Source: Flavobacteriaceae bacterium
GTDB lineage: Bacteria; Bacteroidota; Bacteroidia; Flavobacteriales; Flavobacteriaceae
Direction: 5' to 3'
Assembly (NCBI GenBank): GCA_021739635.1
Contig: JAIPBH010000001.1
Location: forward strand, 105,209-169,208
Length of the DNA stretch: 64,000 nt
Below the pieces are notes generated by a model that was not told the DNA's origin, did no database searches, and was given only the letters and a program-made list of their open reading frames with translations. Position 1 is the first letter of the stretch. Each line of letters opens with the position of its first letter. The translations under genes and the position numbers were made by a program. Of the stretch, positions 17,046 through 55,623 are shown one piece after another.

Positions 17046-19676
17046 ATGCAAATTCCATCAAAATATGATGCAAGTCAGGTAGAAAGTAAATGGTATGAGT
17101 ACTGGATGAAACATCATTTTTTTCATTCAGAACCAGATGAAAGAGAACCATATACTATAGTGATTCCTCCGCCTAATGTTACAGGTATTTTACATATGGG
17201 GCATATGCTTAATAATACTATTCAGGATGTTTTAATTCGTCGCGCTCGTTTACAAGGAAAAAACGCTTGTTGGGTTCCTGGTACAGACCATGCATCTATT
17301 GCTACAGAAGCAAAGGTAGTTGCTAAACTAAAAGAACAAGGTATTGATAAAAACAATTTATCTCGTGAAGAGTTTTTAAAACACGCTTGGGATTGGACAC
17401 ATGAGTATGGTGGTGTAATTCTTGAGCAGTTAAAAAAACTAGGTTGCTCATGTGATTGGGATAGAACCAAATTCACAATGGATGATGACATGAGTGAAGC
17501 TGTTATAAAAGTGTTTGTTGATTTGTATAATAAAGGTTTGATTTATCGTGGTTACCGAATGGTTAATTGGGATCCGGAAGCAAAAACAACCCTTTCTGAT
17601 GAAGAAGTTATTTATGAAGAACGCCAAGGATTATTATACTATATAAAATATCAAGTTGAAGGCACTAATGATGCTTTAACCATAGCAACAACACGTCCTG
17701 AAACCATTTTTGGCGATACCGCTATTTGTATTAACCCAAATGATGACCGTTTTAAGCATCTTAAAGGAAAAAAAGCCATTGTTCCCATTTGTAATAGAGT
17801 CATTCCAATTATTGAAGACGATTATGTGGATGTTGAATTTGGTACAGGTTGTTTAAAAGTAACGCCAGCTCATGATGAAAATGATAAGGTTTTAGGTGAA
17901 AAGCACCAGCTTCAAGTTATCGATATTTTTAATGATAATGCAACTTTAAATAGTTTTGGATTGCATTATGAAGGAAAAGATAGGTTTTTAGTTAGAAAAG
18001 AAATTCAAAAAGAATTAGAAGAAAAAGAGCACTTAGTAAAAACAGAAAATTACCTTAATAAAGTAGGTACTAGTGAGCGAACTAAAGCAGTTATTGAGCC
18101 TAGATTATCAGACCAATGGTTTCTTAAAATGGAAGACTTGGTAAAACCTGCTATTAAAGCTGTTTTAGAAGATGGCGACGTCAAATTATTTCCTAAAAAG
18201 TTTGAAAACACCTATCGCCATTGGATGGAAAATATTCGTGACTGGAATATTTCTCGTCAATTATTATGGGGACAACAAATTCCCGCATATTACTATGGTG
18301 ATGGAAAAGAAGATTTTGTAGTGGCTGAAACCATTGAACAAGCTCTAACGCTAGCAAAACAAAAAACCAACAACCAACAACTAACAACTAACAACTTAAT
18401 TCAAGACACCGACGCTTTAGATACTTGGTTTTCATCATGGTTATGGCCAATTAGTGTATTTGATGGTATTCGGTATCCTGAAAATAAAGACATTCAATAT
18501 TATTATCCAACCAACGATTTAGTAACTGGTCCAGATATTTTATTCTTTTGGGTAGCTAGAATGATTATTGCAGGTTATGAATACAGAGATGAAAAACCAT
18601 TTCAAAATGTATATTTAACCGGTTTAGTGCGTGATAAACAGCGCAGAAAAATGAGTAAATCCTTAGGGAATTCTCCTGATGCCTTAAAACTGATTGAAGA
18701 GTTTGGAGCCGATGGCGTTAGAGTAGGCTTATTGTTAAGTTCTGCTGCTGGGAATGATTTGTTGTTTGATGAAGCTTTATGCCAACAAGGTAAAGGGTTT
18801 GCTAATAAAATATGGAATGCTTTCAGATTAATTCAAGGTTGGGAAGTAGCCGATATAGAACAGCCTAAATCCTCAAAAATTGCGATTGATTGGTTTGAAG
18901 CTAAATTCCAGGAAACTTTACTAACTATTGAAGACCATTTTAGTAAATACCGCATAAGCGATGCGCTAATGGAAACCTATAAGTTAATATGGAATGATTT
19001 CTGCTCATGGTTTTTAGAAATGATAAAACCAGAATACCAAAAGCCAATTGATAAAACCACCTATCAAGCAGCCATTGCAATTTTAGAAAATAATCTGAAA
19101 ATATTACATCCATTTATGCCGTTTTTAACTGAAGATATTTGGCAATATATTTCTGAAAGAACACCTAAAGAGGCTTTAATTATTTCTAAATGGCCAAAAT
19201 CTGTAAACTATAATAAAGCCTTAATTTCAGAATTTGATTTTGCTTCTGAAGTCGTTTCAGGCATCAGAAATATTAGAAAAGAGAAAAATATCCCTTTTAA
19301 AGATGCCATTCAGTTTTCTGTAATTAATAATGAAAACGTTACATCTACTTTTGATGAAGTTATTGTAAAATTGGGTAATATAGAATCTATCAATTACACA
19401 ACACAAGCCATTGAAGGCGCGTTAACGTTTAGAGTAAAATCAAATGAGTATTTTATTCCAATGGCAGGTGCCATTGATATTGAAACAGAAATTAAAAAGC
19501 TAACGGAAGAGTTAAACTATACCGAAGGCTTTTTAAAATCAGTTCAAAACAAACTTTCAAACGAACGATTTGTTGCTGGTGCGCCTGAACAGGTTATTAC
19601 AAACGAAAGAAATAAGGAAGCCGATGCATTAGCAAAAATAGAAACTATTAAAGCTAGTTTGCAGAGTTTGAAATAA
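17046..19676 (+). CDS. valS: valine--tRNA ligase
   Basis: HMGH (HIGH) and KMSKS motifs and a C-terminal coiled coil. ATG 17046 (MQIPSKYD...) is preferred over the TTG at 17013 used by the ORF track. Confidence 0.95.
18368..18395 (+). repeat. four tandem YAACAAC heptamers inside the valS reading frame
   Basis: CAACAAC CAACAAC TAACAAC TAACAAC read directly. This is the same unit as the intergenic array at 54298-54346. Confidence 0.85.
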
Positions 19677-31280: not shown

Positions 31281-31356
31281 TTCATTGTTAATTTTTCATT
31301 ATCAATTATCAATTGTCAATTATCAATTGTCAATTGTCAATTATCAATTGTCAAAG
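31281..31356. repeat. RTCAATT heptamer tandem array (7 clean units at 31301-31349, degenerate flanks)
   Basis: ATCAATT ATCAATT GTCAATT ATCAATT GTCAATT GTCAATT ATCAATT read directly. Lies in the ddl-coaD spacer and covers the ddl stop codon. Confidence 0.9.
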
Positions 31357-37047: not shown

Positions 37048-38007
37048 TTATTCCTTCACAAACTTAAAAGTATTACCATCTTCTAATTTTAAAAAGTACA
37101 TTCCTTTTGTCAAGTTTTGTATGTTTATTTCATCAATAGCAGAGATATTTCCTTTTTTAACAAGTGATCCCAAAGTATTATATATTGAATAATTTTTTAT
37201 TTTAAAAAGTCCCGATAATTTAAAAGTATCCTTTGCTGGATTTGGGTAAAGTCTTATTGTGTTTTTGACTGTAAAATCTAAAACAGAAAGTGTTGAAAAA
37301 TTAACACCTGAAGAAACCCAATTGGAATTTGTTCCAGTTAAAGAAAAATTATTTAATGTAGCATCATTATTAGCAGGTGAACTATCAATTAAAACAGTTA
37401 TGGTTGAATTAGCTCCATTAGCAATACCTTGATTAAAATTATAAGATGCAATTAAATCAGCAGTTGAAATTGGGTTTTCTAAATTCCAATCAGCACCAAT
37501 TTCCATAGGTGTTAGTACACGGTTATAAACTCTTACACCATCAATTTGACCCTTATAAAATCTATTATCGAAACTATGGCCTATTAACCAAGAACCAATA
37601 TTGGTTAAAAAATTTGCTCCTCCAGTTGTTACTGAAGTTTGCTGAACTCCATTAATATATAATTGAATTATATTGCCATCGTATGTGCCAGCAACGTGAT
37701 ACCATTGTCCATCATTTATTGTATACTGTGTTGATGAATAATTACCATTATTTGTTAAAACCCAAAAAGCAATATTATTTCCTGATAATTCTAACGAACA
37801 CATTTGTGAAATAGATAATACCGGAGGAAATGTTTGACTAGCAATGTTTGTCGTATTAATCCAAGCCTCAACTGTAATTGAATTTGTTGAGTTAATTGAA
37901 CCAGCTGGTCCAATGTAATCATCTATTCCATCAAAATCTAATGCATTTTGAGAAGTTATAGTAAAAGAGAATAATAGTACTATAATTGAAGCGTGAATTT
38001 TTTTCAC
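37048..38007 (-). CDS. LamG/concanavalin-A-like lectin domain protein with a T9SS type A C-terminal sorting domain
   Basis: Signal peptide, LamG-like core (WYHVAGTYDG...LYINGV), and C-terminal LYPNPAKD...GMYFLKL CTD. Confidence 0.75.
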   Translation of the reverse strand: MKKIHASIIVLLFSFTITSQNALDFDGIDDYIGPAGSINSTNSITVEAWINTTNIASQTFPPVLSISQMCSLELSGNNIAFWVLTNNGNYSSTQYTINDGQWYHVAGTYDGNIIQLYINGVQQTSVTTGGANFLTNIGSWLIGHSFDNRFYKGQIDGVRVYNRVLTPMEIGADWNLENPISTADLIASYNFNQGIANGANSTITVLIDSSPANNDATLNNFSLTGTNSNWVSSGVNFSTLSVLDFTVKNTIRLYPNPAKDTFKLSGLFKIKNYSIYNTLGSLVKKGNISAIDEINIQNLTKGMYFLKLEDGNTFKFVKE

Positions 38008-38066: not shown

Positions 38067-38813
38067 TTATTCTTTCATAAACTTATAAGTATTTCCATCT
38101 TCTAATTTTAAAAAGTACATTCCTTTTGTCAAGTTTTGTATGTTTATTTCATCATTAGCAGAGATATTTCCTTTTTTAACAAGTGACCCCAAAGTATTAT
38201 ATATTGAAAAATTTTCTGTTTTAAAAAGTCCCGATAATTTAAAAGTATCCTTTGCTGGATTTGGGTAAAGATCAATCGTATTATTGATTGTTACTTCATC
38301 AATTGATAATGTTAATGTTTCAGCAAGTCCAAAAGTATATTGAACCTCATTTGTGTCTCCCGCAAGATATGTTATAGTTAATGTTGTAATAGGATTAGTA
38401 AATTCAATAATTCCATTCCCCCATAAAACTGAATTTAGTTGAGTGCCATTATGGGTAGACATATTGACGCTTCCTTCTAAAATTGTAAAAGGCTGATCAA
38501 AGGAAACCGCAGAAGATCTTAAATATCTACAATAAAGTCTTAAATTTGGTATTGGAGAGTCAAAAGTTACAGTCCAATTACTATCTGCTCGAATCGCAAA
38601 CACAGTAGTATTACCAGTAATAGGTGCATATTCAAATCCTACTCCAGATAAATCTGCTCCACTAGCACGCGTTGCACTATTAGTAAATACAAAAGGCACT
38701 CCAGATAAAGTTCCTGTATTAGTGCCTGTCCAAGAAGCTACTATTTGCTGCGAATGCGATTTAAAGGTAATTGCTAAAATAAAAATTGCTGTGAATAAGT
38801 AAATTTGTTTCAT
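38067..38813 (-). CDS. secreted protein of unknown function with a T9SS type A C-terminal sorting domain
   Basis: Signal peptide. The C-terminal ~70 aa are nearly identical to those of the neighbouring gene. Confidence 0.65.
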   Translation of the reverse strand: MKQIYLFTAIFILAITFKSHSQQIVASWTGTNTGTLSGVPFVFTNSATRASGADLSGVGFEYAPITGNTTVFAIRADSNWTVTFDSPIPNLRLYCRYLRSSAVSFDQPFTILEGSVNMSTHNGTQLNSVLWGNGIIEFTNPITTLTITYLAGDTNEVQYTFGLAETLTLSIDEVTINNTIDLYPNPAKDTFKLSGLFKTENFSIYNTLGSLVKKGNISANDEINIQNLTKGMYFLKLEDGNTYKFMKE

Positions 38814-39959: not shown

Positions 39960-40420
39960 CTCAGGGTCTGTTTTATATTTGTTATGATTTTACATTATTT
40001 TGTCTACTTTACTTGCTTTTGCATACACTGCGTATACTCTTCTTGCAAGTCTAATTGCAGTTTCTTGTCCCATTCCTATGGATATTCTAGTGACTAAAAT
40101 TAGTTTCTAATTTTAAGAAAAAGCAAATTTAAAAGCTATTTCAATTTTAAATTGCAATAAAAAACGAAAAAACTAATATATTTTGCTGTTTTTATTTTTA
40201 GGTATTTCAGAATGCTACCAACGATAATTAGAATAATTGAAGGATAAAAACTCAGCATAGATATTATCAATGGGCCTTTTTTGTTTCCTGAGTCAATTAG
40301 TCCAAATGCATCAAGTTCTTATAAAATTAATAAAGGGCCAGTCTCTAAAATGAATATTATTATTCCAAACTTTAATGTTTTATGTAATTTACTCCAAGTT
40401 GATTACATGTTAATTAATTT
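39960..40420 (-). pseudogene. decayed gene fragments (a membrane-protein remnant with in-frame stops and a 3'-terminal fragment)
   Basis: Minus-strand reading gives ..STWSKLHKTLKFGIIIFILETGPLLIL*ELDAFGLIDSGNKKGPLIISMLSFYPSIILIIVGSILKYLK.. with in-frame TAA. A separate tail reads ..VTRISIGMGQETAIRLARRVYAVYAKASKVDKIM*. Confidence 0.3.
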
Positions 40421-40664
40421 TAGTCTAGGTTTACTAATGGTTAGTTTGTGAATTTATGATAATTTTTGGCGAAACATTTGCTTTTACATTTTGTTATATT
40501 CAAAGTTAGTTTTTGTTTACCGTTTCCAAAGTCATTCAGCCATAACATTATCGTTTTACTTGGAGTTAGTCAGAAGTTTTTTTAAAAAAATCGATGTTTT
40601 TTTTAAATCAATATAATTATTATTCGTTTTAAAAATACTTTACACATATTGGTCATAATGTTTG

Positions 40665-40870
40665 CCAACTTGTTTATATGCGGAACTTTCATCGGCTTAT
40701 CCAACCAATTTGGCAGGATATGCCCAAGTTTTAATAGCTGTTGTTCGGTTTGGGTTTTAACATGTTGCCAAGTTAGCCTTTTCTTACAAAATATACAAGC
40801 GGTAGGGGTGTTATGTTGGTTTGTTTTTGCCCTTGTTGGGCCAAAGTTCCATTTAAACCATATAACCCAA
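40665..40870 (+). repeat. direct repeat, copy 1 (~205 bp; 149-bp core at 40722-40870)
   Basis: The core aligns base for base with 43104-43252 (offset 2382), with about five mismatches by hand alignment. An upstream CAACTTGTTTATAT block is also shared. Confidence 0.85.
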
Positions 40871-41012
40871 TTAAAAAAACAAAGTATTTCTTTCCAAAAT
40901 AACCCACTACTTGAAAAGTTAAAAGAAACCATAAAAATTAAGGACTTATTAACGCCTTACATTTTTTTTGCAGTGGCCAAATGTTTAATTTCGAAGGCTT
41001 AATTTATTTTTT

Positions 41013-41975
41013 ATGATGGTTTGGGGGTTATTTCTTTTAGGAATATTTATTTTTTTAGCATTAGACTTAGGGGTTTTTAATAAAAACCCACATATTATAA
41101 GCGTTAAGGAAGCTTCTGCCTGGACTGGTGTTTGGGTAACCTTATCCTTTTTGTTTTCTGGGGTTATTTATTGGCTGTACAGCACCGGCAAAATTGATAA
41201 TGTAAATTCCTTAACCCCTATGGATGCCACTATAAAATACATTACAGGGTATTTAATAGAATTATCCTTAAGCATTGATAACATTTTTGTAATAGCGGTT
41301 ATTTTCGGCTCTTTCCACATTCCACAGAAATACCAGCACAGAGTGCTGTTTTGGGGTATATTAGGAGCCATTGTATTCCGGGCACTCATGATATTTTTTG
41401 GTATAGCGCTCATCAATAAATTTAGTATTGCCACCTATATATTTGGGGCTTTTTTGTTGTTTACCGCCTTTAAAATGTTGTTTTCAAAAGAAGAAACGTT
41501 TAACCCTAAAAAATCATTTGTTTACAGAAACTTACGAAAAGTTATGCCCATAACCACGCACATGCAAGGGCAAAAATTTTTTGTTAAAATGCGTCATATC
41601 ACGGCCGCAACACCCTTATTTATTGCCTTGGTAGTTATTGAGTTTACAGACATTTTATTTGCCCTAGACAGCGTACCCGCCATCTTGGCCATAACCTCAG
41701 ACCCTTTTTTGGTGTTTAGCTCCAACATTTTTGCCATCTTGGGCTTACGCTCCATGTATTTTTTTCTTGCCAACATGTTGGACCGCTTTAGTTATTTAAA
41801 ATACAGTTTAGTGGCTATTTTAAGTTTTGTAGGGGTTAAACTTATTTTGGTGCACCATTACAAATTTCCAGAATGGGTCTCCTTAAGTTTTATCGCGGTA
41901 GCACTGCTTACGGGTATCATCGTTTCTTTAAAACAAGAACCTGCTAAGAACGTAGAGGATAAGAGCGTAGATTAA
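41013..41975 (+). CDS. terC: TerC-family integral membrane protein
   Basis: Polytopic protein with TerC signatures (ELSLSIDNIFV, EFTDILFALDSVPAI). Confidence 0.85.
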   Translation: MMVWGLFLLGIFIFLALDLGVFNKNPHIISVKEASAWTGVWVTLSFLFSGVIYWLYSTGKIDNVNSLTPMDATIKYITGYLIELSLSIDNIFVIAVIFGSFHIPQKYQHRVLFWGILGAIVFRALMIFFGIALINKFSIATYIFGAFLLFTAFKMLFSKEETFNPKKSFVYRNLRKVMPITTHMQGQKFFVKMRHITAATPLFIALVVIEFTDILFALDSVPAILAITSDPFLVFSSNIFAILGLRSMYFFLANMLDRFSYLKYSLVAILSFVGVKLILVHHYKFPEWVSLSFIAVALLTGIIVSLKQEPAKNVEDKSVD

Positions 41976-42105
41976 AAGACTTTTACTATACTTCAAGGGC
42001 TTGTTTAATTACATGTTTTAACGATTCGCGGCTTGGCGAAGTGACGAATTTAGTAGCACGTACTTTTATTTTAGCACAGAAACCCGCCATTTTGCAAAAC
42101 TGCTG

Positions 42106-42915
42106 TTAGCTGTTGTTTTTCTTTGTTGCTGTTACTGAATAAACCATTGGTATTTTGTTGTTCAAATGCTCAATTCTAAATTTTTTCGGTTCAAACTCTA
42201 TGGTTTTGCTAAAGCAATTGTAAGGTGAATAATCAAATTCGTCAAGAGAATTAATTTCAAGCCCATTACCAATTAAACTATTTATTACTTCACTTAAACC
42301 GTGATTCCACATGACGTATGATTGGGTTATGTTTGCATTTTTGTCTGCGTAAGTTCCACTTTCTGTTTCTATAATTGCTCCCGAATTAAAATATCTGTAA
42401 CCAATTTTGTCAAAGTTGTCGTCAAACATCCAAACAACAGGATGAAACTCTACAAATATAAATTGTCCATTAGGCTTTAAAAACTGGGAAATGATTTTTG
42501 CCCACTTGTCCAAGTCAGGTAACCAACCTATGGTTCCGTAACTTGTAAATACAATATCAAATTTTTCGCTTAAATGGTTTGGTAAGTTGTAAATGTCGCA
42601 ACAAATAAACTTTGCATTTGAATTGGTGTCTTTTGCAATTTGTTTTGCACAATCAATTGCTTTGTCTGATAAGTCAACGCCTATAACATCTGCACCAAGT
42701 CGGCTCAACGAAATTGAGTCTTGTCCAAAATGACATTGTAAATGTAAAATTGTTTTTCCTTTTAAGTCGCCAAGCAAGTTTAATTCAATCTCATTTAAAG
42801 AGGTTTTTCCATTCAGAAATCCATCAAGGTCGTAAAATTCCGATTTTAAGTGTGTGTCAGTTCTATTGTTCCAGGACTGTCGGTTTATTTCTATATAATT
42901 TTGTTCTTGCTCCAT
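42106..42915 (-). CDS. class I SAM-dependent methyltransferase
   Basis: Motif I region ILHLQCHFGQDS and post-I VIGVDLS. Substrate unknown. Confidence 0.75.
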   Translation of the reverse strand: MEQEQNYIEINRQSWNNRTDTHLKSEFYDLDGFLNGKTSLNEIELNLLGDLKGKTILHLQCHFGQDSISLSRLGADVIGVDLSDKAIDCAKQIAKDTNSNAKFICCDIYNLPNHLSEKFDIVFTSYGTIGWLPDLDKWAKIISQFLKPNGQFIFVEFHPVVWMFDDNFDKIGYRYFNSGAIIETESGTYADKNANITQSYVMWNHGLSEVINSLIGNGLEINSLDEFDYSPYNCFSKTIEFEPKKFRIEHLNNKIPMVYSVTATKKNNS

Positions 42916-43048
42916 TTTTTCTAAGGTCGGTTTTTTAAAATAACTGCTAACGTGTTTATTACGGAATTTTCATTAACTTATAAAACCCCTATGCTAGCGC
43001 TTGTTTGCAACGAGTGCCACAATTCAATTATTAGGCGCGAGCGGGGGC

Positions 43049-43252
43049 ACAACTTGTTTATATACCTACTTTTAATAACCTATACCGCAAATAGCCAGCA
43101 TAAGCCCACGTTTTAATAGCTGTTGTTCGGTTTGGGTTTTAACATGTTGCCAAGTTAGCCTTTTCTTACAAAATATACAAGCGGTAGGGGTGTTATGTTG
43201 GTTTGTTTTTGCCCTTGTTCGGCCAAAGTTCCATCTAAACCATATATACCAA
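43049..43252 (+). repeat. direct repeat, copy 2
   Basis: See copy 1. Same orientation, 2.38 kb downstream. Confidence 0.85.
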
Positions 43253-43262
43253 AGTGGTAGCT

Positions 43263-43295
43263 GAACAAAACCCGAACAAAACCCGAACAAAACCC
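43263..43295 (+). repeat. 3 x 11-mer GAACAAAACCC tandem repeat
   Basis: Three perfect units read directly. Confidence 0.95.
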
Positions 43296-43312
43296 CTACT
43301 TTTTTTGGCACG

Positions 43313-43372
43313 TGTGTCAATATGTGTCAATATGTGTCAATGTGTGTCAATGTGTGTCAATATGTGTCAATA
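43313..43372 (+). repeat. 6 x 10-mer TGTGTCAATR tandem repeat (iteron-like)
   Basis: TGTGTCAATA x2, TGTGTCAATG x2, TGTGTCAATA x2 read directly. Confidence 0.95.
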
Positions 43373-43380
43373 GCTATCAC

Positions 43381-43431
43381 GGGGTTGCATATGTGAAGCC
43401 TGCTTTATAGCTTCACATTATTATTAACCCC
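43381..43431 (+). promoter_or_regulatory. 50-nt imperfect inverted repeat (cruciform/hairpin) upstream of the 43448 ORF
   Basis: Outer stem GGGGTT/AACCCC. Inner 9-bp stem ATGTGAAGC (43391-43399) / GCTTCACAT (43410-43418) with loop CTGCTTTATA. Confidence 0.5.
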
Positions 43432-43447
43432 TAAATATGTAAAAATC

Positions 43448-44092
43448 ATGGGAACATTTAGTAAAGGCATCCTTGGAGGCTTCTCCGGAAAAGTGGGCAA
43501 CGTTGTGGGTGCACGTTGGCGAGGTAAAGATATTATGCGCAGTTTACCACAGCGAGGTACCTACTTACCTACACAAGCACAATTAGACCAGCGCGACCGG
43601 TTTAAAACGGCTATTTTATTTTTAACGCCAATTAAAGACATTGTATCGGCTTATTTTGGCAAGCAGCAAGGCGATAAAAGCACCTTTAATTTGGCAACAG
43701 GCTACCACATTAAGTATGCCTTATTGCCAGATGCTATCGAGGGGTATGTTATTGACTACCCCAAAGTACTGATAGGTAAAGGTGATTTGCGTGGACTTGC
43801 CAATGGCAGTGTAAGCCCAGATACCAACCAAGAGCTTACCATTGCTTGGGATGATAATAGCGGGCAAGGTAATGCCGCCGCTACTGATGAGCTGGTGGTT
43901 GTGGTGTACTGTGAGGCACTCGATTTGTTTGAAACGGCAAACCCTGCTGGCACGCGTGATGTGGTTACGGTGCAAATGCAGTTACCTGCTTACTGGGCAG
44001 GGCAAGAGGTGCGCGTTTGGGCTACTTTTGTTACTGCCGACCAAAAACTGGCTGCTACCAGTACGTATCTGGGAGCTGTAACGCTTACTTAA
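43448..44092 (+). CDS. hypothetical protein, GC-rich orphan (I recall it as DUF6266-like; unverified)
   Basis: 214-aa ORF with a Gly/Lys/Arg-rich N-terminus MGTFSKGILGGFSGKVGNVVGARWRGKD. About 50% GC against ~30% in the flanks. Followed by a strong hairpin. Confidence 0.6.
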   Translation: MGTFSKGILGGFSGKVGNVVGARWRGKDIMRSLPQRGTYLPTQAQLDQRDRFKTAILFLTPIKDIVSAYFGKQQGDKSTFNLATGYHIKYALLPDAIEGYVIDYPKVLIGKGDLRGLANGSVSPDTNQELTIAWDDNSGQGNAAATDELVVVVYCEALDLFETANPAGTRDVVTVQMQLPAYWAGQEVRVWATFVTADQKLAATSTYLGAVTLT

Positions 44093-44104
44093 TCATAGTT
44101 TTTA

Positions 44105-44150
44105 ACAGATTGCTTTTTACCTTATTGCGTGGTACGAAGCAATCTGTTTT
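44105..44150 (+). terminator. rho-independent terminator after the 43448-44092 ORF
   Basis: 11-bp perfect stem ACAGATTGCTT (44105-44115) / AAGCAATCTGT (44137-44147) followed by TTTTATT. The loop is 21 nt, which is long. Confidence 0.55.
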
Positions 44151-44167
44151 ATTGTGTTTGTTATCAT

Positions 44168-44195
44168 GAGATTGCTTCACTAGGTTCGCAATGAC
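44168..44195 (-). repeat. GTCATTGCGA..GAAGCAATCTC hairpin motif (minus orientation)
   Basis: The reverse complement reads GTCATTGCGAACCTAGTGAAGCAATCTC. Both ends are identical to the copy at 35794-35821. Confidence 0.6.
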
Positions 44196-44209
44196 GGTTT
44201 AATGGCTTT

Positions 44210-44458
44210 TTAAACAGCCTCACTTTGGTTTATATAGTGGTTTTCTTGTAATAGAATGTTTTGTAGTTTATAACCCAAAAGTTGTTGTATATACACTTTT
44301 GGAAAGTAGAGTACACCACCCATTTTAGTAAAGGGTAATTGCTTGGTTTTGCACCAGCGGTATAAGGTGCTTCTGCTTACTTTTAAAAAATGTTGGGCTT
44401 CATCTGAGGTCATCCAGTAATCATCTTTAAAAGTTGTAGGTTTTAACTGTTGTAACAT
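44210..44458 (-). CDS. helix-turn-helix (excisionase/MerR-like, HTH_17-type) DNA-binding protein
   Basis: WMTSDEAQHFLKVSRSTLYRWCKTKQLPFTKMGGVLYF matches the excisionase-family HTH pattern common in Bacteroidetes mobile elements. Confidence 0.75.
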   Translation of the reverse strand: MLQQLKPTTFKDDYWMTSDEAQHFLKVSRSTLYRWCKTKQLPFTKMGGVLYFPKVYIQQLLGYKLQNILLQENHYINQSEAV

Positions 44459-44592
44459 GATGTTTGGGGTTTAAAATAATGCAGTGGTACTTTTTACATA
44501 TAACGTGCTTATAAATTTGTTAGCAAACTACATAGTTAATAAAAAGCCTTTAAATAAAAAATACTTACTTGTGCGTATTTTTTTGTTGAGGT

Positions 44593-44981
44593 GTTCGGTG
44601 GTCAGTGGTCAGTATTCAGTGTTCAGTGGTCAGTGATTTTAATCATTAATCATTAATCATTAATTATCAATTATAATGTCACCCTGAGCGCAGTCGAAGG
44701 GCAGTGTTCAGTGTTCAGTATTCAGTGTTCGGTATTCAGTGTTCAGTGGTCAGTATTCAGTGTTCAGTATTCAGTGGTCAGTGTTCAGTGGTCAGTGTTC
44801 AGTGATTTTAATTGTTAATCATTAATCATTAATCGTTAATCGTTAATCGTTAATCATTAATCATTAATCGTTAATCATTCATCATTAATCGTTAATCATT
44901 AATCGTTAATCATTCATCGTTAATTGTCAATTATCAATTATCAATTATCAATTGTCAATTATCAATTGTAAATTGTCAATT
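44593..44981 (+). repeat. composite heptamer satellite: (RKTCRGT)n-GATTTTA-(RTTMATC)n-(RTMAATT)n, present twice
   Basis: Unit-by-unit reading gives block 1 = 6+3+1 units (44593-44672), a hairpin motif at 44678-44702, then block 2 = 14+16+8 units (44706-44981). Confidence 0.95.
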
Positions 44982-44991
44982 AAAATAACCG

Positions 44992-44999
44992 TACCTTTG
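44992..44999 (+). promoter_or_regulatory. candidate -7 promoter box for rhlE
   Basis: TACCTTTG fits TAnnTTTG. It lies 10 nt after the last heptamer and 57 nt before ATG 45056. Confidence 0.3.
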
Positions 45000-45055
45000 C
45001 AGCTAAATAAAAAAATGACACTAATAGTTAGATGGTCATTTACCAAAAACTTTAT

Positions 45056-46339
45056 ATGTCATTCAACCAATTAGGCTTATCTGAAGCCTTGCAAAAAGCT
45101 ATTAGCAAAAAAGGATATACTACCCCAAGCCCTATTCAAACAAAAGCCATCCCGCCTATATTAGAAGGGAAAGATATATTAGCTTCGGCACAAACAGGCA
45201 CCGGTAAAACAGCAGGGTTTACTTTGCCCTTATTACAATTATTATCGCAAGGGCAACCCTTAAGACAGCGCCCAGTACGAGCGTTAGTGCTTACCCCAAC
45301 TCGTGAGTTGGCAGCCCAAGTGTATGAAAACGTGAAGGAATACAGTGTGTTTCTCGATTTGCGTTCGGTCGTTATTTTTGGCGGTGTTAATCAAAATCCG
45401 CAGGTTAATCAATTACGGCAAGGGGTTGATATTTTGGTAGCCACACCGGGTCGACTTCTGGATTTGCACAATCAAGGCATGTTATCACTTTCAAAAGTAG
45501 AAATATTAGTGCTTGATGAAGCCGACCGTATGCTAGATATGGGTTTTTTACGCGATATAGAGCGCATTATGAAACTTATGCCCACCAAACGGCAAAACCT
45601 GATGTTTTCGGCAACCTTTTCACCCGATATTAAAAAGCTGGCACAAGGTATTTTAAACCATCCGGTACAGGTAGAGGCTACGCCCGAAAATACCACTGTG
45701 GAGGCCATTTCACAAAAAGTATATAAAGTAGCTAAAGGCTTAAAAACAGGCTTGATTATTAAACTAATTTCTGACGGAGATTGGAAACAAGTACTGGTGT
45801 TTACACGTACCAAACATGGCGCCAATAAACTTTGTGAAAAAATGGTGCAAGCTGGTATTACGGCCGCTGCTATACATGGTAATAAAAGTCAGGGAGCCAG
45901 AACCAAGGCCTTAAGCGGTTTTAAAACTGGTGCCGTACGCGTGTTGGTGGCTACTGATATTGCAGCTCGCGGATTGGATATTCCGTTATTGCCCCATGTG
46001 ATTAATTTTGAATTACCTAATATTCCTGAAGACTATATTCACAGAATAGGTAGAACGGGTAGAGCAGGTGCTAGTGGGGAAGCCTTATCGTTAGTAAGTG
46101 CCGATGAAACCACCTTTTTAAGAGATATTGAAAAACTGGTAGGCACGCGCTTTCCGGTTGAGATTGTAGAAGGTTTTGAACCCGACCCCAATGCATCAAC
46201 CGAGCCCGAAAAGAGACAACAACGCCAAGGTGGCAACAGAGATAAAAATAATGCTCAGCCCAAGACGTCTAACGATAAAAAATCAAATCGTCCAAAACGT
46301 AACAGAAACAAATTTTCTGACCATAAAAGGAAACCTTAA
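45056..46339 (+). CDS. rhlE: DEAD-box ATP-dependent RNA helicase (RhlE-like) with a basic C-terminal tail
   Basis: Q motif, [15 protein letters not shown] and [10 protein letters not shown] motifs. ATG 45056 ([12 protein letters not shown]) is preferred over 45032. Confidence 0.9.
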
Positions 46340-46345
46340 GGACCT

Positions 46346-46582
46346 ATGGAAACACAACCCAATAACCCGCTACACGGCATTACTTTAGAAAAAATCTTGA
46401 CTGATTTGGTGGCGCATTACGGTTGGGAATATATGGGTTATACCATTAAAATTAAATGTTTTACCGATAATCCTTCCATAAAATCTAGCTTAGTATTTTT
46501 ACGTAAAACACCATGGGCACGTGCCAAAGTGGAGACTATGTATTTAAACATGTTGAAAAAAAGAAAACAACAAGAACAATAA
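46346..46582 (+). CDS. VF530/DUF2132-family small protein
   Basis: [24 protein letters not shown]...PWARAKVE matches my memory of DUF2132. Confidence 0.7.
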
Positions 46583-54208: not shown

Positions 54209-54288
54209 ATATAAGGTTAAAAGGTTATAAGGATATAAGGTTATAAGGATATAAGGTTAAAAGGATATAAGGTTAAAAGGTTATAAGT
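54209..54288 (+). repeat. 10 x octamer WTAWAAGG tandem array
   Basis: ATATAAGG TTAAAAGG TTATAAGG ATATAAGG TTATAAGG ATATAAGG TTAAAAGG ATATAAGG TTAAAAGG TTATAAGT read directly. Confidence 0.95.
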
Positions 54289-54297
54289 TAGTTTTAC

Positions 54298-54346
54298 TAA
54301 CAACTAACAACTAACAACTAACAACTAACAACTAACAACCAACAAC
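54298..54346 (+). repeat. 7 x heptamer YAACAAC tandem array abutting the rarA stop codon
   Basis: TAACAAC x6 then CAACAAC read directly. Its last base is the first base of the rarA stop triplet (minus strand). Confidence 0.95.
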
Positions 54347-55623
54347 TAATACCCATACTTATCTTTCCAGCGTTGTTTTAAAAAATCCTGATACGCTTTT
54401 TCGCGTGTGTTATTTCCAGGTTCATAAAGCTTTAAGCCTTTCAGGTCATCGGGCATAAACTCTTGGTTTACAAAATTATGTTCGTAGCTATGGGCATATT
54501 TATAATCTTCACCATAACCAAGCTCTTTCATTAATTTAGTTGGCGCATTTCTAATATCTAATGGCACCGATAAATCACCAGTTTCTTTTACGATCTGTTG
54601 CGCCTTACTAATAGCCATATAAGCTGCATTACTTTTAGGTGAACACGCTAAATAGGTAGCGCATTGGCTAAGAATAATTCTAGATTCTGGGTAACCAATA
54701 GTTGCAACTGCTTGAAAGGTATTATTGGCAATTACTAAAGCGGTTGGATTGGCATTGCCAATATCTTCACTGGCTAAAATTAAAAGGCGTCTGGCTATAA
54801 ACTTAACATCTTCACCACCTTCAATCATTCTGGCTAGCCAATAAACGGCAGCATTGGGGTCGCTTCCTCTAATTGATTTTATAAAAGCCGAAATAATATC
54901 ATAGTGCTGTTCACCCGTTTTATCATATCTAACGGTATTATTTTGAACTTTTTTCAGTACAGACTCATCTGTTATAATAATGTTATAAGTATCTTCTGAA
55001 TTGATGATGAGTTCAAAAATGTTTAAAAGTTTTCTAGCATCACCTCCAGAAAGTTTTAAAAGCGCATGAGTTTCTTTAAGGGTTATATTTTTTTTTGATA
55101 AATAAATATCTTGTTTAATAGCACGGTTTAAAAGAGTTTCTAAATCACTTTTATCAAACGAATTAAGAATATAAACCTGACAGCGTGATAAAAGGGCAGG
55201 AATCACTTCAAAACTTGGGTTTTCTGTAGTGGCGCCAAAAAGTGTTATCCAACCTTTTTCAACAGCTTGTAATAAAGAGTCTTGTTGAGATTTGCTAAAT
55301 CGATGAATCTCATCAATAAATAAAATAGGGTTTTTGGTGGTAAATAAGCCACCACTTTGCTTGGCTTTATCTATTACATCACGAATGTCTTTTACACCAG
55401 AATTAATAGCACTTAACGCATAAAATGGCCTTCCAGATTCATTAGCAATAATATTTGCTAAGGTTGTTTTGCCTGTTCCTGGCGGACCCCAAAAAATCAT
55501 GGAAGGAATAAGTCCTTGTTTAATTTGCTGCGTTAACGACCCTTGTTTGCCAACTAAATGAGTCTGACTCACATAGTCATTGAGAGTTTTGGGTCTTAAT
55601 CGTTCAGCTAAAGGTTCATTCAT
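54346..55623 (-). CDS. rarA: replication-associated recombination protein A (AAA+ ATPase)
   Basis: Walker [10 protein letters not shown], Walker B LFIDEIHRF, and a MgsA C-terminal domain. Confidence 0.9.
   Translation of the reverse strand: MNEPLAERLRPKTLNDYVSQTHLVGKQGSLTQQIKQGLIPSMIFWGPPGTGKTTLANIIANESGRPFYALSAINSGVKDIRDVIDKAKQSGGLFTTKNPILFIDEIHRFSKSQQDSLLQAVEKGWITLFGATTENPSFEVIPALLSRCQVYILNSFDKSDLETLLNRAIKQDIYLSKKNITLKETHALLKLSGGDARKLLNIFELIINSEDTYNIIITDESVLKKVQNNTVRYDKTGEQHYDIISAFIKSIRGSDPNAAVYWLARMIEGGEDVKFIARRLLILASEDIGNANPTALVIANNTFQAVATIGYPESRIILSQCATYLACSPKSNAAYMAISKAQQIVKETGDLSVPLDIRNAPTKLMKELGYGEDYKYAHSYEHNFVNQEFMPDDLKGLKLYEPGNNTREKAYQDFLKQRWKDKYGY

Follow-up and report, generated by a model that had tools for sequence, protein, structure and literature searches.

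Phased direct-repeat arrays upstream of DUF6266 genes in Flavobacteriaceae and their probable link to a BldC-like HTH_17 protein

Arrays of short direct repeats beside an inverted repeat raise the question of whether they serve as a replication origin, as a transfer or recombination site, or as the control region of the gene that follows. This question is posed by a stretch of 64,000 nucleotides (nt) from a Flavobacteriaceae bacterium (GenBank assembly GCA_021739635.1, contig JAIPBH010000001.1, positions 105,209 to 169,208 of the forward strand), which is referred to here as the window and numbered from its first letter. An array of 11-mers, an array of 10-mers and a 50-nt inverted repeat directly precede an open reading frame (ORF) in the window that encodes a protein of the DUF6266 family. 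As judged from sequence comparison, the arrays are the control region of a chromosomal module of about 1.4 kb with two genes, one for DUF6266 and one for a BldC-like HTH_17 protein. The phased 10-mers probably carry a head-to-tail filament of this winged-helix protein, which would control the DUF6266 promoter. Conservation, phasing, co-variation and BldC homology are the grounds for this reading, and binding, the position of the promoter and the regulatory outcome are predicted from them.

The 11-mer array (43263-43295) consists of 3.0 copies of GAACAAAACCC (period 11, 100% identical) and the 10-mer array (43313-43372) of 6.0 copies of TGTGTCAATR (period 10, 96% identical), according to Tandem Repeats Finder (TRF). 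The last bases of the 10-mer units are, in order, A A G G A A, and a seventh unit, GCTATCACGG (43373-43382), is degenerate but in phase. No exact copy of either repeat occurs elsewhere in the 64-kb window, as all three exact matches of GAACAAAACCC and all six of TGTGTCAAT lie inside the respective arrays. The inverted repeat has an outer stem GGGGTT (43381-86)/AACCCC (43426-31) and an inner stem ATGTGAAGC (43391-99)/GCTTCACAT (43410-18). Direct reading and TRF thus confirm the sequences and coordinates of all three elements as given in the original prediction, an earlier reading of the same DNA.

The inverted repeat folds with -11.4 kcal/mol, compared with -3.9 ± 1.6 for shuffled sequences (z = -4.6). 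It is absent at the homologous position of 14 relatives (z from -1.5 to +1.7), and the 50-nt hairpin was therefore discarded as a conserved feature, contrary to its place in the original prediction. By this comparison it is lineage-specific and outside the conserved design. It may have arisen by accident or serve as a local operator; it overlaps the predicted core promoter, because the TTG at 43385-87 and the TAGCTTCA box at 43408-15 both lie within 43381-43431.

Conservation and phasing of the arrays

The ORF downstream of the arrays had been described as an orphan; it belongs instead to a large family. It matches DUF6266 (PF19781) with an E-value of 7e-42 and 143.6 bits (cut-off 23.4) over model positions 2-198 of 198, and 793 homologues were found at E ≤ 1e-3, nearly all of them in Flavobacteriaceae, the best 120 sharing 57-96% identity. 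The comparisons described here are based on the best 80 of 456 genome-scan matches to DUF6266, and counts for upstream regions refer to these 80 loci plus the window (81). In 12 close relatives, blastn matches to the window start at 43208-43213 and end at about 44583, with different flanks on either side. The module thus bounded contains the upstream control region, DUF6266, a terminator-like inverted repeat, and the convergent HTH_17 gene with its own upstream region. A comparable 1.45-kb unit is duplicated in Salegentibacter (L060/L066) with 91-95% identity. The other neighbours are unrelated, with 125 Pfam families among 137 flanking proteins of the 80 loci.

TRF and direct reading show that the upstream layout of 11-mers, linker and 10-mers is common to most of the 80 loci. 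The arrays are therefore conserved DNA sites and not chance repeats. Their absence beside homologues was named in the original prediction as a reason to abandon it, and the opposite was found, since most loci keep them. About three 11-mers of the CCGAACAAAAC type are present per locus. Their CGAAS cores are spaced by exactly 11 nt in 65 of the 81 upstream regions, 50 of which contain three or more cores, while spacings of 9, 10, 12 or 13 nt occur in only 0-1 upstream regions. Most loci also have an inverted core, STTCG, which precedes the first direct CGAAS by 44-55 nt, and the window contains a second, farther inverted copy at 43121-43130. The left and right arms co-vary, with CTCCCA accompanied by TGGGAG in several loci, e.g., L031, L068 and Aequorivita. 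The 11-mers are much more conserved than the 10-mers and are arranged symmetrically around a centre composed of an A-run, GTnCCA and a T-run; in L060, L070, L075 and L077 the spacer forms a tight palindrome such as TTCGGTAAAA-GTTCCA-TTTTACCGAA. Between the two arrays, a linker of CCCC, a T/A-run and GG recurs in most loci.

Only the 5-6-nt cores of the 11-mer arms are complementary, while the spacers between them are not, which argues for binding by a protein; the alternative that the arms pair into a long hairpin, as RNA or as DNA, was rejected for the same reason. The three direct and at least one inverted 11-mers are proposed to constitute a second, much more conserved set of sites for a protein distinct from HTH_17, with DUF6266 itself, a host factor or a recombinase as candidates.

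The 10-mer arrays contain 4-21 units with a strict period of 10 nt and a core of TCA, ACA or GCA. A period-10 signal marks the upstream region specifically: the median best score of the 80 loci is 34.5 out of 50 there and 25 elsewhere. Between the last 11-mer and the ATG lie 131 to 301 nt, and this distance is quantised modulo 10 (R = 0.61, Rayleigh p ~3e-11); all other periods tested gave R ≤ 0.27. A metagenome contig encoding an identical DUF6266 protein has six units, but their last bases run A G A A A A, unlike the A A G G A A of the window, and two contigs encoding one identical relative have six and seven units, respectively. These strain differences in pattern and number indicate that the 10-mers turn over by whole units, so that the length of the array changes and its helical phase is kept.

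The 10-mer array always ends about 5 nt before a TTG, followed 17-21 nt further on by a TAnnTT box and then by a short A-rich leader. Sigma-70 promoter and terminator scans are uninformative for Bacteroidota, and a phylum-specific motif was therefore used. The motif TTG-N17-21-TAnnYT[YA] is present in the last 110 nt of 55 of the 81 loci, mostly at -60, and in 11% of the control windows. It agrees with the flavobacterial sigma-A consensus, which has a -7 element TAnnTTTG (PMC9723704). With TTG-N20-TAGCTTCA, the window approaches the arrangement of a -33 TTG, a spacer of about 19 bp and the -7 TAnnTTTG, and 43385-43415 is a candidate core promoter of the Bacteroidetes type. Among the roles named in the original prediction, an operator array controlling the ORF fits best.

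The HTH_17 protein and its candidate binding sites

Of the 80 loci, 63 have a convergent HTH_17 gene at most 2.2 kb downstream of DUF6266, and another five have one upstream. In the window, its product matches HTH_17 (PF12728) with 47.9 bits (cut-off 27) and the excisionase model TIGR01764 with 30.5 bits (cut-off 28.8). The protein has 82 residues, lacks an effector domain and carries the recognition helix V27-S-R-S30-T-L-Y33-R34-W35, in which R34 is the sole invariant column in an alignment of 24 HTH_17 sequences. The profile of these 24 proteins finds BldC as the best match in the PDB (6AMA, E 5e-7; 6AMK, E 4e-6). Among the top matches of the fold search are RacA, BldC, Tn916 Xis, pSK1 Par and RdfS; the superposition with BldC has a root-mean-square deviation of 1.9-2.0 Å over 49 residues with a Foldseek E-value of only 0.04. 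A single-sequence AlphaFold (AF2) model shows a long C-terminal helix (residues 53-78) that is missing in BldC.

The HMMER alignment pairs S30 with Lys26 and the invariant R34 with Arg30 of BldC, and the Trp also aligns. Lys26 and Arg30 are the two residues of BldC that contact bases in the major groove, and Arg30 reads a pyrimidine-guanine (YpG) step; on direct repeats, whose number varies, BldC assembles into head-to-tail oligomers (PMC5859096). On the basis of sequence and fold similarity and of the conserved base-contacting Arg and Trp, the HTH_17 protein can be classed as BldC-like.

The sequence of the 10-mers differs among genera, while an in-phase CA, equivalent to a TG step on the opposite strand, is kept in the units; the preceding base is mostly T, in some loci A and in a few G. 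When this base was compared, locus by locus, with residue 4 of the recognition helix (S30 in the window), the core TCA was found with Ser in 43 loci and with Ala in one, ACA with Arg in seven, and G-type cores with Val, Asn and Ser in one locus each. L009, which has Arg and mixed ACA/CCA units with no TCA, fell below the scoring cut-off and is outside these counts. According to the DUF6266 and HTH sequences, the Arg/ACA state is found in at least 3-4 separate lineages, each most closely related to Ser/TCA loci. This co-variation, together with the BldC alignment, is good indirect evidence that HTH_17 reads the 10-mers with one monomer per helical turn. The original prediction had named this protein as a candidate binder, and it is the best candidate, since the co-variation involves the residue aligned with a base contact of BldC.

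In the mechanism proposed, the 10-mers would offer a CA after the specificity base once per helical turn, all in the same direction and up to the -33 element. HTH_17 monomers, bound to them head to tail, would line one face of the DNA as a filament, like BldC and Xis, and this filament may switch or tune DUF6266 transcription with either sign. Slippage would alter the number of units in whole turns, shifting the length of the filament and leaving the phase between the 11-mer block and the promoter unchanged.

The mechanism is rated as being of the BldC/Xis kind; new are the length and regularity of the array, its dedication to one gene, the second array of 11-mers and the co-variation of residue and base. 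BldC of Streptomyces is likewise a small single-domain winged-helix protein that targets direct repeats of variable number at promoters on one DNA face. Its sites comprise 2-4 imperfect repeats of about 9 bp spread over a regulon, whereas in Bacteroidota a single dedicated array of 6-21 near-perfect 10-bp units would be bound at one target gene, next to a second 11-mer array. Excisionases and recombination directionality factors (RDFs) such as lambda Xis, Tn916 Xis, TorI and RdfS, and also Xis2c and Xis2d of CTnDOT, share class and fold with the HTH_17 protein and act cooperatively on tandem sites. RdfS, Xis2c and Xis2d also regulate promoters from upstream, and the Xis-like pair Xis2c and Xis2d of CTnDOT activates a Bacteroides promoter from such sites (PMC3809561). 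In contrast to these systems, the window and 76 of the 80 loci lack a partner integrase, no att core was recognised, and the arrays are far longer than 2-3 Xis sites.

Partition arrays (R1 parC-ParR, the omega heptads of pSM19035, and pSK1 Par, which is among the fold matches) also place short phased direct repeats coated by a small protein at a promoter. Here, however, a partition NTPase and a plasmid context are missing, and the DUF6266 product is FN3-like. OmpR and PhoB bind tandem half-sites of 10-11 bp head to tail, upstream of the -35 element or in its place, but the protein encoded here is of a different family without a receiver domain, and the units are far more numerous.

Several observations weigh against the regulatory filament. 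About 17 of the 80 loci have no convergent HTH_17 within 2.2 kb, the five with an upstream copy being among them, and arrays are kept in some loci without the convergent gene, e.g., L047, L050, L069, L070 and L075. With a period of 10 bp and up to 21 units, the arrays exceed the BldC model of 2-4 repeats at 9 bp. The code is not one-to-one, as Ser also occurs with a G-type core (in L014, and in Leeuwenhoekiella with TPSC). The promoter is predicted from motifs, and the -7 box of the window, TAGCTTCA, matches just 4 of the 6 specified consensus positions; binding and regulation are likewise predicted from sequence. Finally, none of 34 loci has 10-mer copies near the start of the HTH_17 gene, and autoregulation of HTH_17 via the 10-mers was accordingly ruled out.

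The arrays would give the widespread, unstudied small HTH_17 proteins of Bacteroidota a concrete target and a rule for DNA recognition, with dozens of natural protein/array pairs in which a single residue of the recognition helix tracks a single base of the repeat. They would also provide the first functional handle on DUF6266.

Alternative readings of the arrays

The arrays could represent the attachment-site arm of a present or past small integrative element, with the 11-mers as arm-type integrase sites and the 10-mers as sites of an HTH_17 excisionase (RDF). This is unlikely; it is compatible with a regulatory role as well. Bacteriophage lambda has three tandem P' arm-type sites, to which the 11-mers can be likened, and the inverted and direct 11-mers around the GTnCCA centre resemble a core site with accessory sites. 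HTH_17 passes TIGR01764 and resembles Tn916 Xis and RdfS in its fold. A homologous tyrosine integrase is encoded divergently, 270-620 nt upstream of DUF6266, in four of the 80 loci, which belong to four genera. The module is found in varied contexts, occurs twice in three genomes and is at times located near restriction-modification systems or Cas9. In Bacteroidales, DUF6266 is part of small elements that also carry HTH_17 genes, a DUF3987 primase and, in some cases, an integrase, and the module may therefore descend from an integrative element.

On the other hand, no integrase is encoded within 4 kb in the window or in the remaining 76 loci, and tblastn over the whole window detected no integrase homologue. 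The earlier statement that no integrase is present holds for the neighbourhood examined in the window, but not for the four related loci that carry an integrase. These adjoining integrases belong to a very large island family of Flavobacteriaceae that is tRNA-linked elsewhere; the L024 enzyme is closer (64%) to a tRNA-linked enzyme of Polaribacter than to the other three. An integrase as constant partner was thus rejected. In addition, a recombination site has no need of the fixed phase and distance that the arrays maintain relative to the DUF6266 promoter, and the spacers of the 11-mer cores lack complementarity. Palindromes of the TTCGGTAAAA-GTTCCA-TTTTACCGAA kind, which could represent a core site, are present in some loci and weak in the window, and no att-core direct repeats were noticed at the module ends, for which no dedicated search was run. 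The module adjoins DEAD/VF530 or PaiB/RadC genes in the window, L003, L004 and L082, and this syntenic position points to long residence.

An iteron-type replication origin or oriT of a plasmid-like or satellite replicon, the reading suggested by direct-repeat arrays beside an inverted repeat and an A/T-rich linker, is hardly credible for this locus. Its units would be 10-11 bp long instead of the 17-22 bp of iterons, no DnaA box is present within 4 kb (the nearest similar match is more than 4 kb away), and no Rep, relaxase or primase is found in the neighbourhood in the window or among the 25 families listed of the 125 flanking the 80 Flavobacteriaceae loci. No plasmid or phage matches the module protein, the inverted repeat lacks conservation, and the arrays are locked to a promoter, a fixed link that iteron origins do not share. 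This part of the original prediction was therefore abandoned; long, perfectly phased arrays beside a gene need not imply an origin or a transfer site.

It is also quite improbable that the arrays are neutral or contingency microsatellites, i.e., slippage products without a specific binder that act at most as a spacer of variable length. The genome is rich in short tandem arrays such as heptamers, near-identical strains differ in the number and pattern of units, and the 10-nt quantisation is expected from gain or loss of whole units alone. Slippage is nevertheless insufficient, because units that have otherwise diverged in sequence between genera still share position, period, orientation and CA core, and because the core varies together with a DNA-contacting residue in the adjacent protein; the heptamer arrays show no comparable conservation of place. 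A transcribed leader, in which the repeats or the hairpin would act as an attenuator, a protein-binding leader or a small RNA, is very improbable. The hairpin of the window is thermodynamically strong, and a 5' untranslated region (UTR) motif, TTAACCCC(T/A)AA, is widely conserved and extends even to a Bacteroidales homologue with 38% identity. However, the hairpin is confined to the window lineage, the arrays are located upstream of the conserved promoter-like boxes, and complementarity between the 11-mer arms is limited to their short cores. Rfam 15 gave nothing at the gathering threshold in the window and only chance-level matches at E up to 5 in 40400-45100, and a tRNA scan of the window found nothing.

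A joint reading combines the HTH_17 filament with the descent from an integrative element. The locus would be a two-protein, two-array circuit left behind by a small integrative lysis-cassette element of Bacteroidota, the filament length, set by the fast-evolving 10-bp array, would serve as a heritable expression rheostat in whole turns, and DUF6266 would bind the 11-mer palindrome with its basic N-terminus and feed back on its own promoter. This combination is speculative and doubtful as a whole. If it were true, the natural switches between Ser and Arg, matched by T and A in the units, would amount to a recognition code for BldC-like and Xis-like winged-helix proteins.

The module, its features and its surroundings

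The features of the module are compiled in the following table.

Table 1. Positions of the arrays, genes and associated elements in the 64-kb window
Feature	Position	Strand	Evidence
Inverted copy of the 11-mer ("left arm"), CCCTTGTTCGG (reverse complement CCGAACAAGGG)	43212-43222	+	STTCG core in most loci
Spacer between the arms, A-run / GTnCCAT / T-run centre, here CCAAAGTTCCATCTAAACC	43223-43262	+	80 upstream sequences
Three direct 11-mers, GAACAAAACCC	43263-43295	+	TRF, CGAAS spacing
Linker, C-run then T-run, CTACTTTTTTTGGCACG	43296-43312	+	CCCC + T/A-run + GG recurrent in most loci
Six TGTGTCAATR units and degenerate seventh unit GCTATCACGG; proposed HTH_17 sites	43313-43382	+	TRF, conservation, co-variation
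Predicted core promoter: -33 TTG at 43385-87, 20-nt spacer, -7-like TAGCTTCA at 43408-15	43385-43415	+	Motif
50-nt inverted repeat over core promoter and start of 5' UTR	43381-43431	+	Folding z
DUF6266 gene, 214 amino acids	43448-44092	+	Pfam PF19781
Inverted repeat with 18-nt arms, likely bidirectional terminator	44104-44148		Repeat search, 89% complementary, 9-nt loop
HTH_17 gene, 82 amino acids, BldC-like/Xis-like winged helix	44210-44458	-	Pfam HTH_17, TIGR01764
Whole conserved module	43208-44583		blastn against 12 close relatives

A simple terminator scan made no call at the inverted repeat between the two convergent genes. DUF6266 genes have a mean G+C content of 48.3%, compared with 34.9% for their surroundings. 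The excess is above 5 points in all 80 loci (range 6-20 points) and is therefore a trait of the family rather than a sign of recent transfer. The AF2 model of the protein (pLDDT 81.6) consists of an N-terminus, two helices and an FN3/immunoglobulin-like beta-sandwich; the N-terminus of 36 residues is disordered and basic, yet almost invariant. Fold and profile searches return generic FN3 domains only, and the profile has no match in the PDB below E 0.4. By tblastn, DUF6266 has no match in 72,556 plasmids or 50,697 phages, and no corresponding family is present in PHROGs, NCBIfam or PADLOC. No mention of DUF6266, PF19781 or the repeat sequences was found in the searchable literature.

A scan of IMG/VR with DUF6266 gave a single distant match, L088, which led to a branch in Bacteroidales. 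In this branch (L088, 810-2757; L089, 6001-7800; L090, 6001-7804; L091, 773-2848), DUF6266 heads a set of four genes and is followed by a holin (Phage_holin_4_1), an endolysin-like protein (phrog_873) and a small lipoprotein. The set is located in small elements with two HTH_17 genes, a BT4734-like protein, a PriCT_2/DUF3987 primase and sometimes an integrase. The upstream regions are conserved among the Bacteroidales loci and unlike those of Flavobacteriaceae, with two copies of TACCAAGTCCG past the -7 box.

In Gaetbulibacter (L004, 4001-7341), the block of HTH_17, DEAD helicase and VF530 genes is inverted as a whole relative to DUF6266 when compared with 43448-46582 of the window, which places one break point between the two convergent genes of the module. 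In loci of Flavobacterium and Chryseobacterium (L072, 5033-8410; downstream in L073, L076 and L078), DUF6266 adjoins Cas9-like or type I restriction-modification genes. These surroundings are defence-island-like, and no adjoining HTH_17 gene was found in them, except upstream in L077.

A direct repeat of about 200 nt (40666-40870/43050-43252) brackets the TerC and methyltransferase genes upstream of the module. Its core of 165 nt (40706-40870/43088-43252) is 94% identical and confined to close relatives. Both copies end at their 3' side in the DUF6266 "left arm" with the inverted 11-mer and the CCAT box, and the first copy lacks the arrays that would be expected next. L082 also has parts of the repeat, and so does L001, where they lie on the far side of the integrase. 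The repeat may be the mark of an insertion or duplication at this site. Its 165-nt core was also considered as an att-like site, a role that is doubtful.

Many tandem arrays of heptamers, and one of octamers, are located in intergenic regions, such as 18365-18396, 31284-31354, 44598-44982 and 54210-54349 of the window. The largest, between the HTH_17 and DEAD-box helicase genes, contains about 50 units (GTGGTCA/CAGTGTT, TTAATCA/TTAATCG and AATTGTC) in two blocks around a GC-rich core, TGTCACCCTGAGCGCAGTCGAAGGGCAG (44678-44704). DUF6266 modules of other genera have this core and similar arrays at their borders (L060/L066, L002, L013, L016, L061 and L070). Metagenome contigs break off at heptamer arrays, and the arrays account for the breaks in metagenome assemblies at this locus.

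Further upstream, on the minus strand, the genes at 37048-38007 and 38067-38813 encode adjacent paralogues with near-identical C-terminal sorting domains for type IX secretion. Their tails read …LYPNPAKDTFKLSGLFK…YFLKLEDGNT.KF.KE, and the near-identity points to a recent tandem duplication or to gene conversion of the tail.

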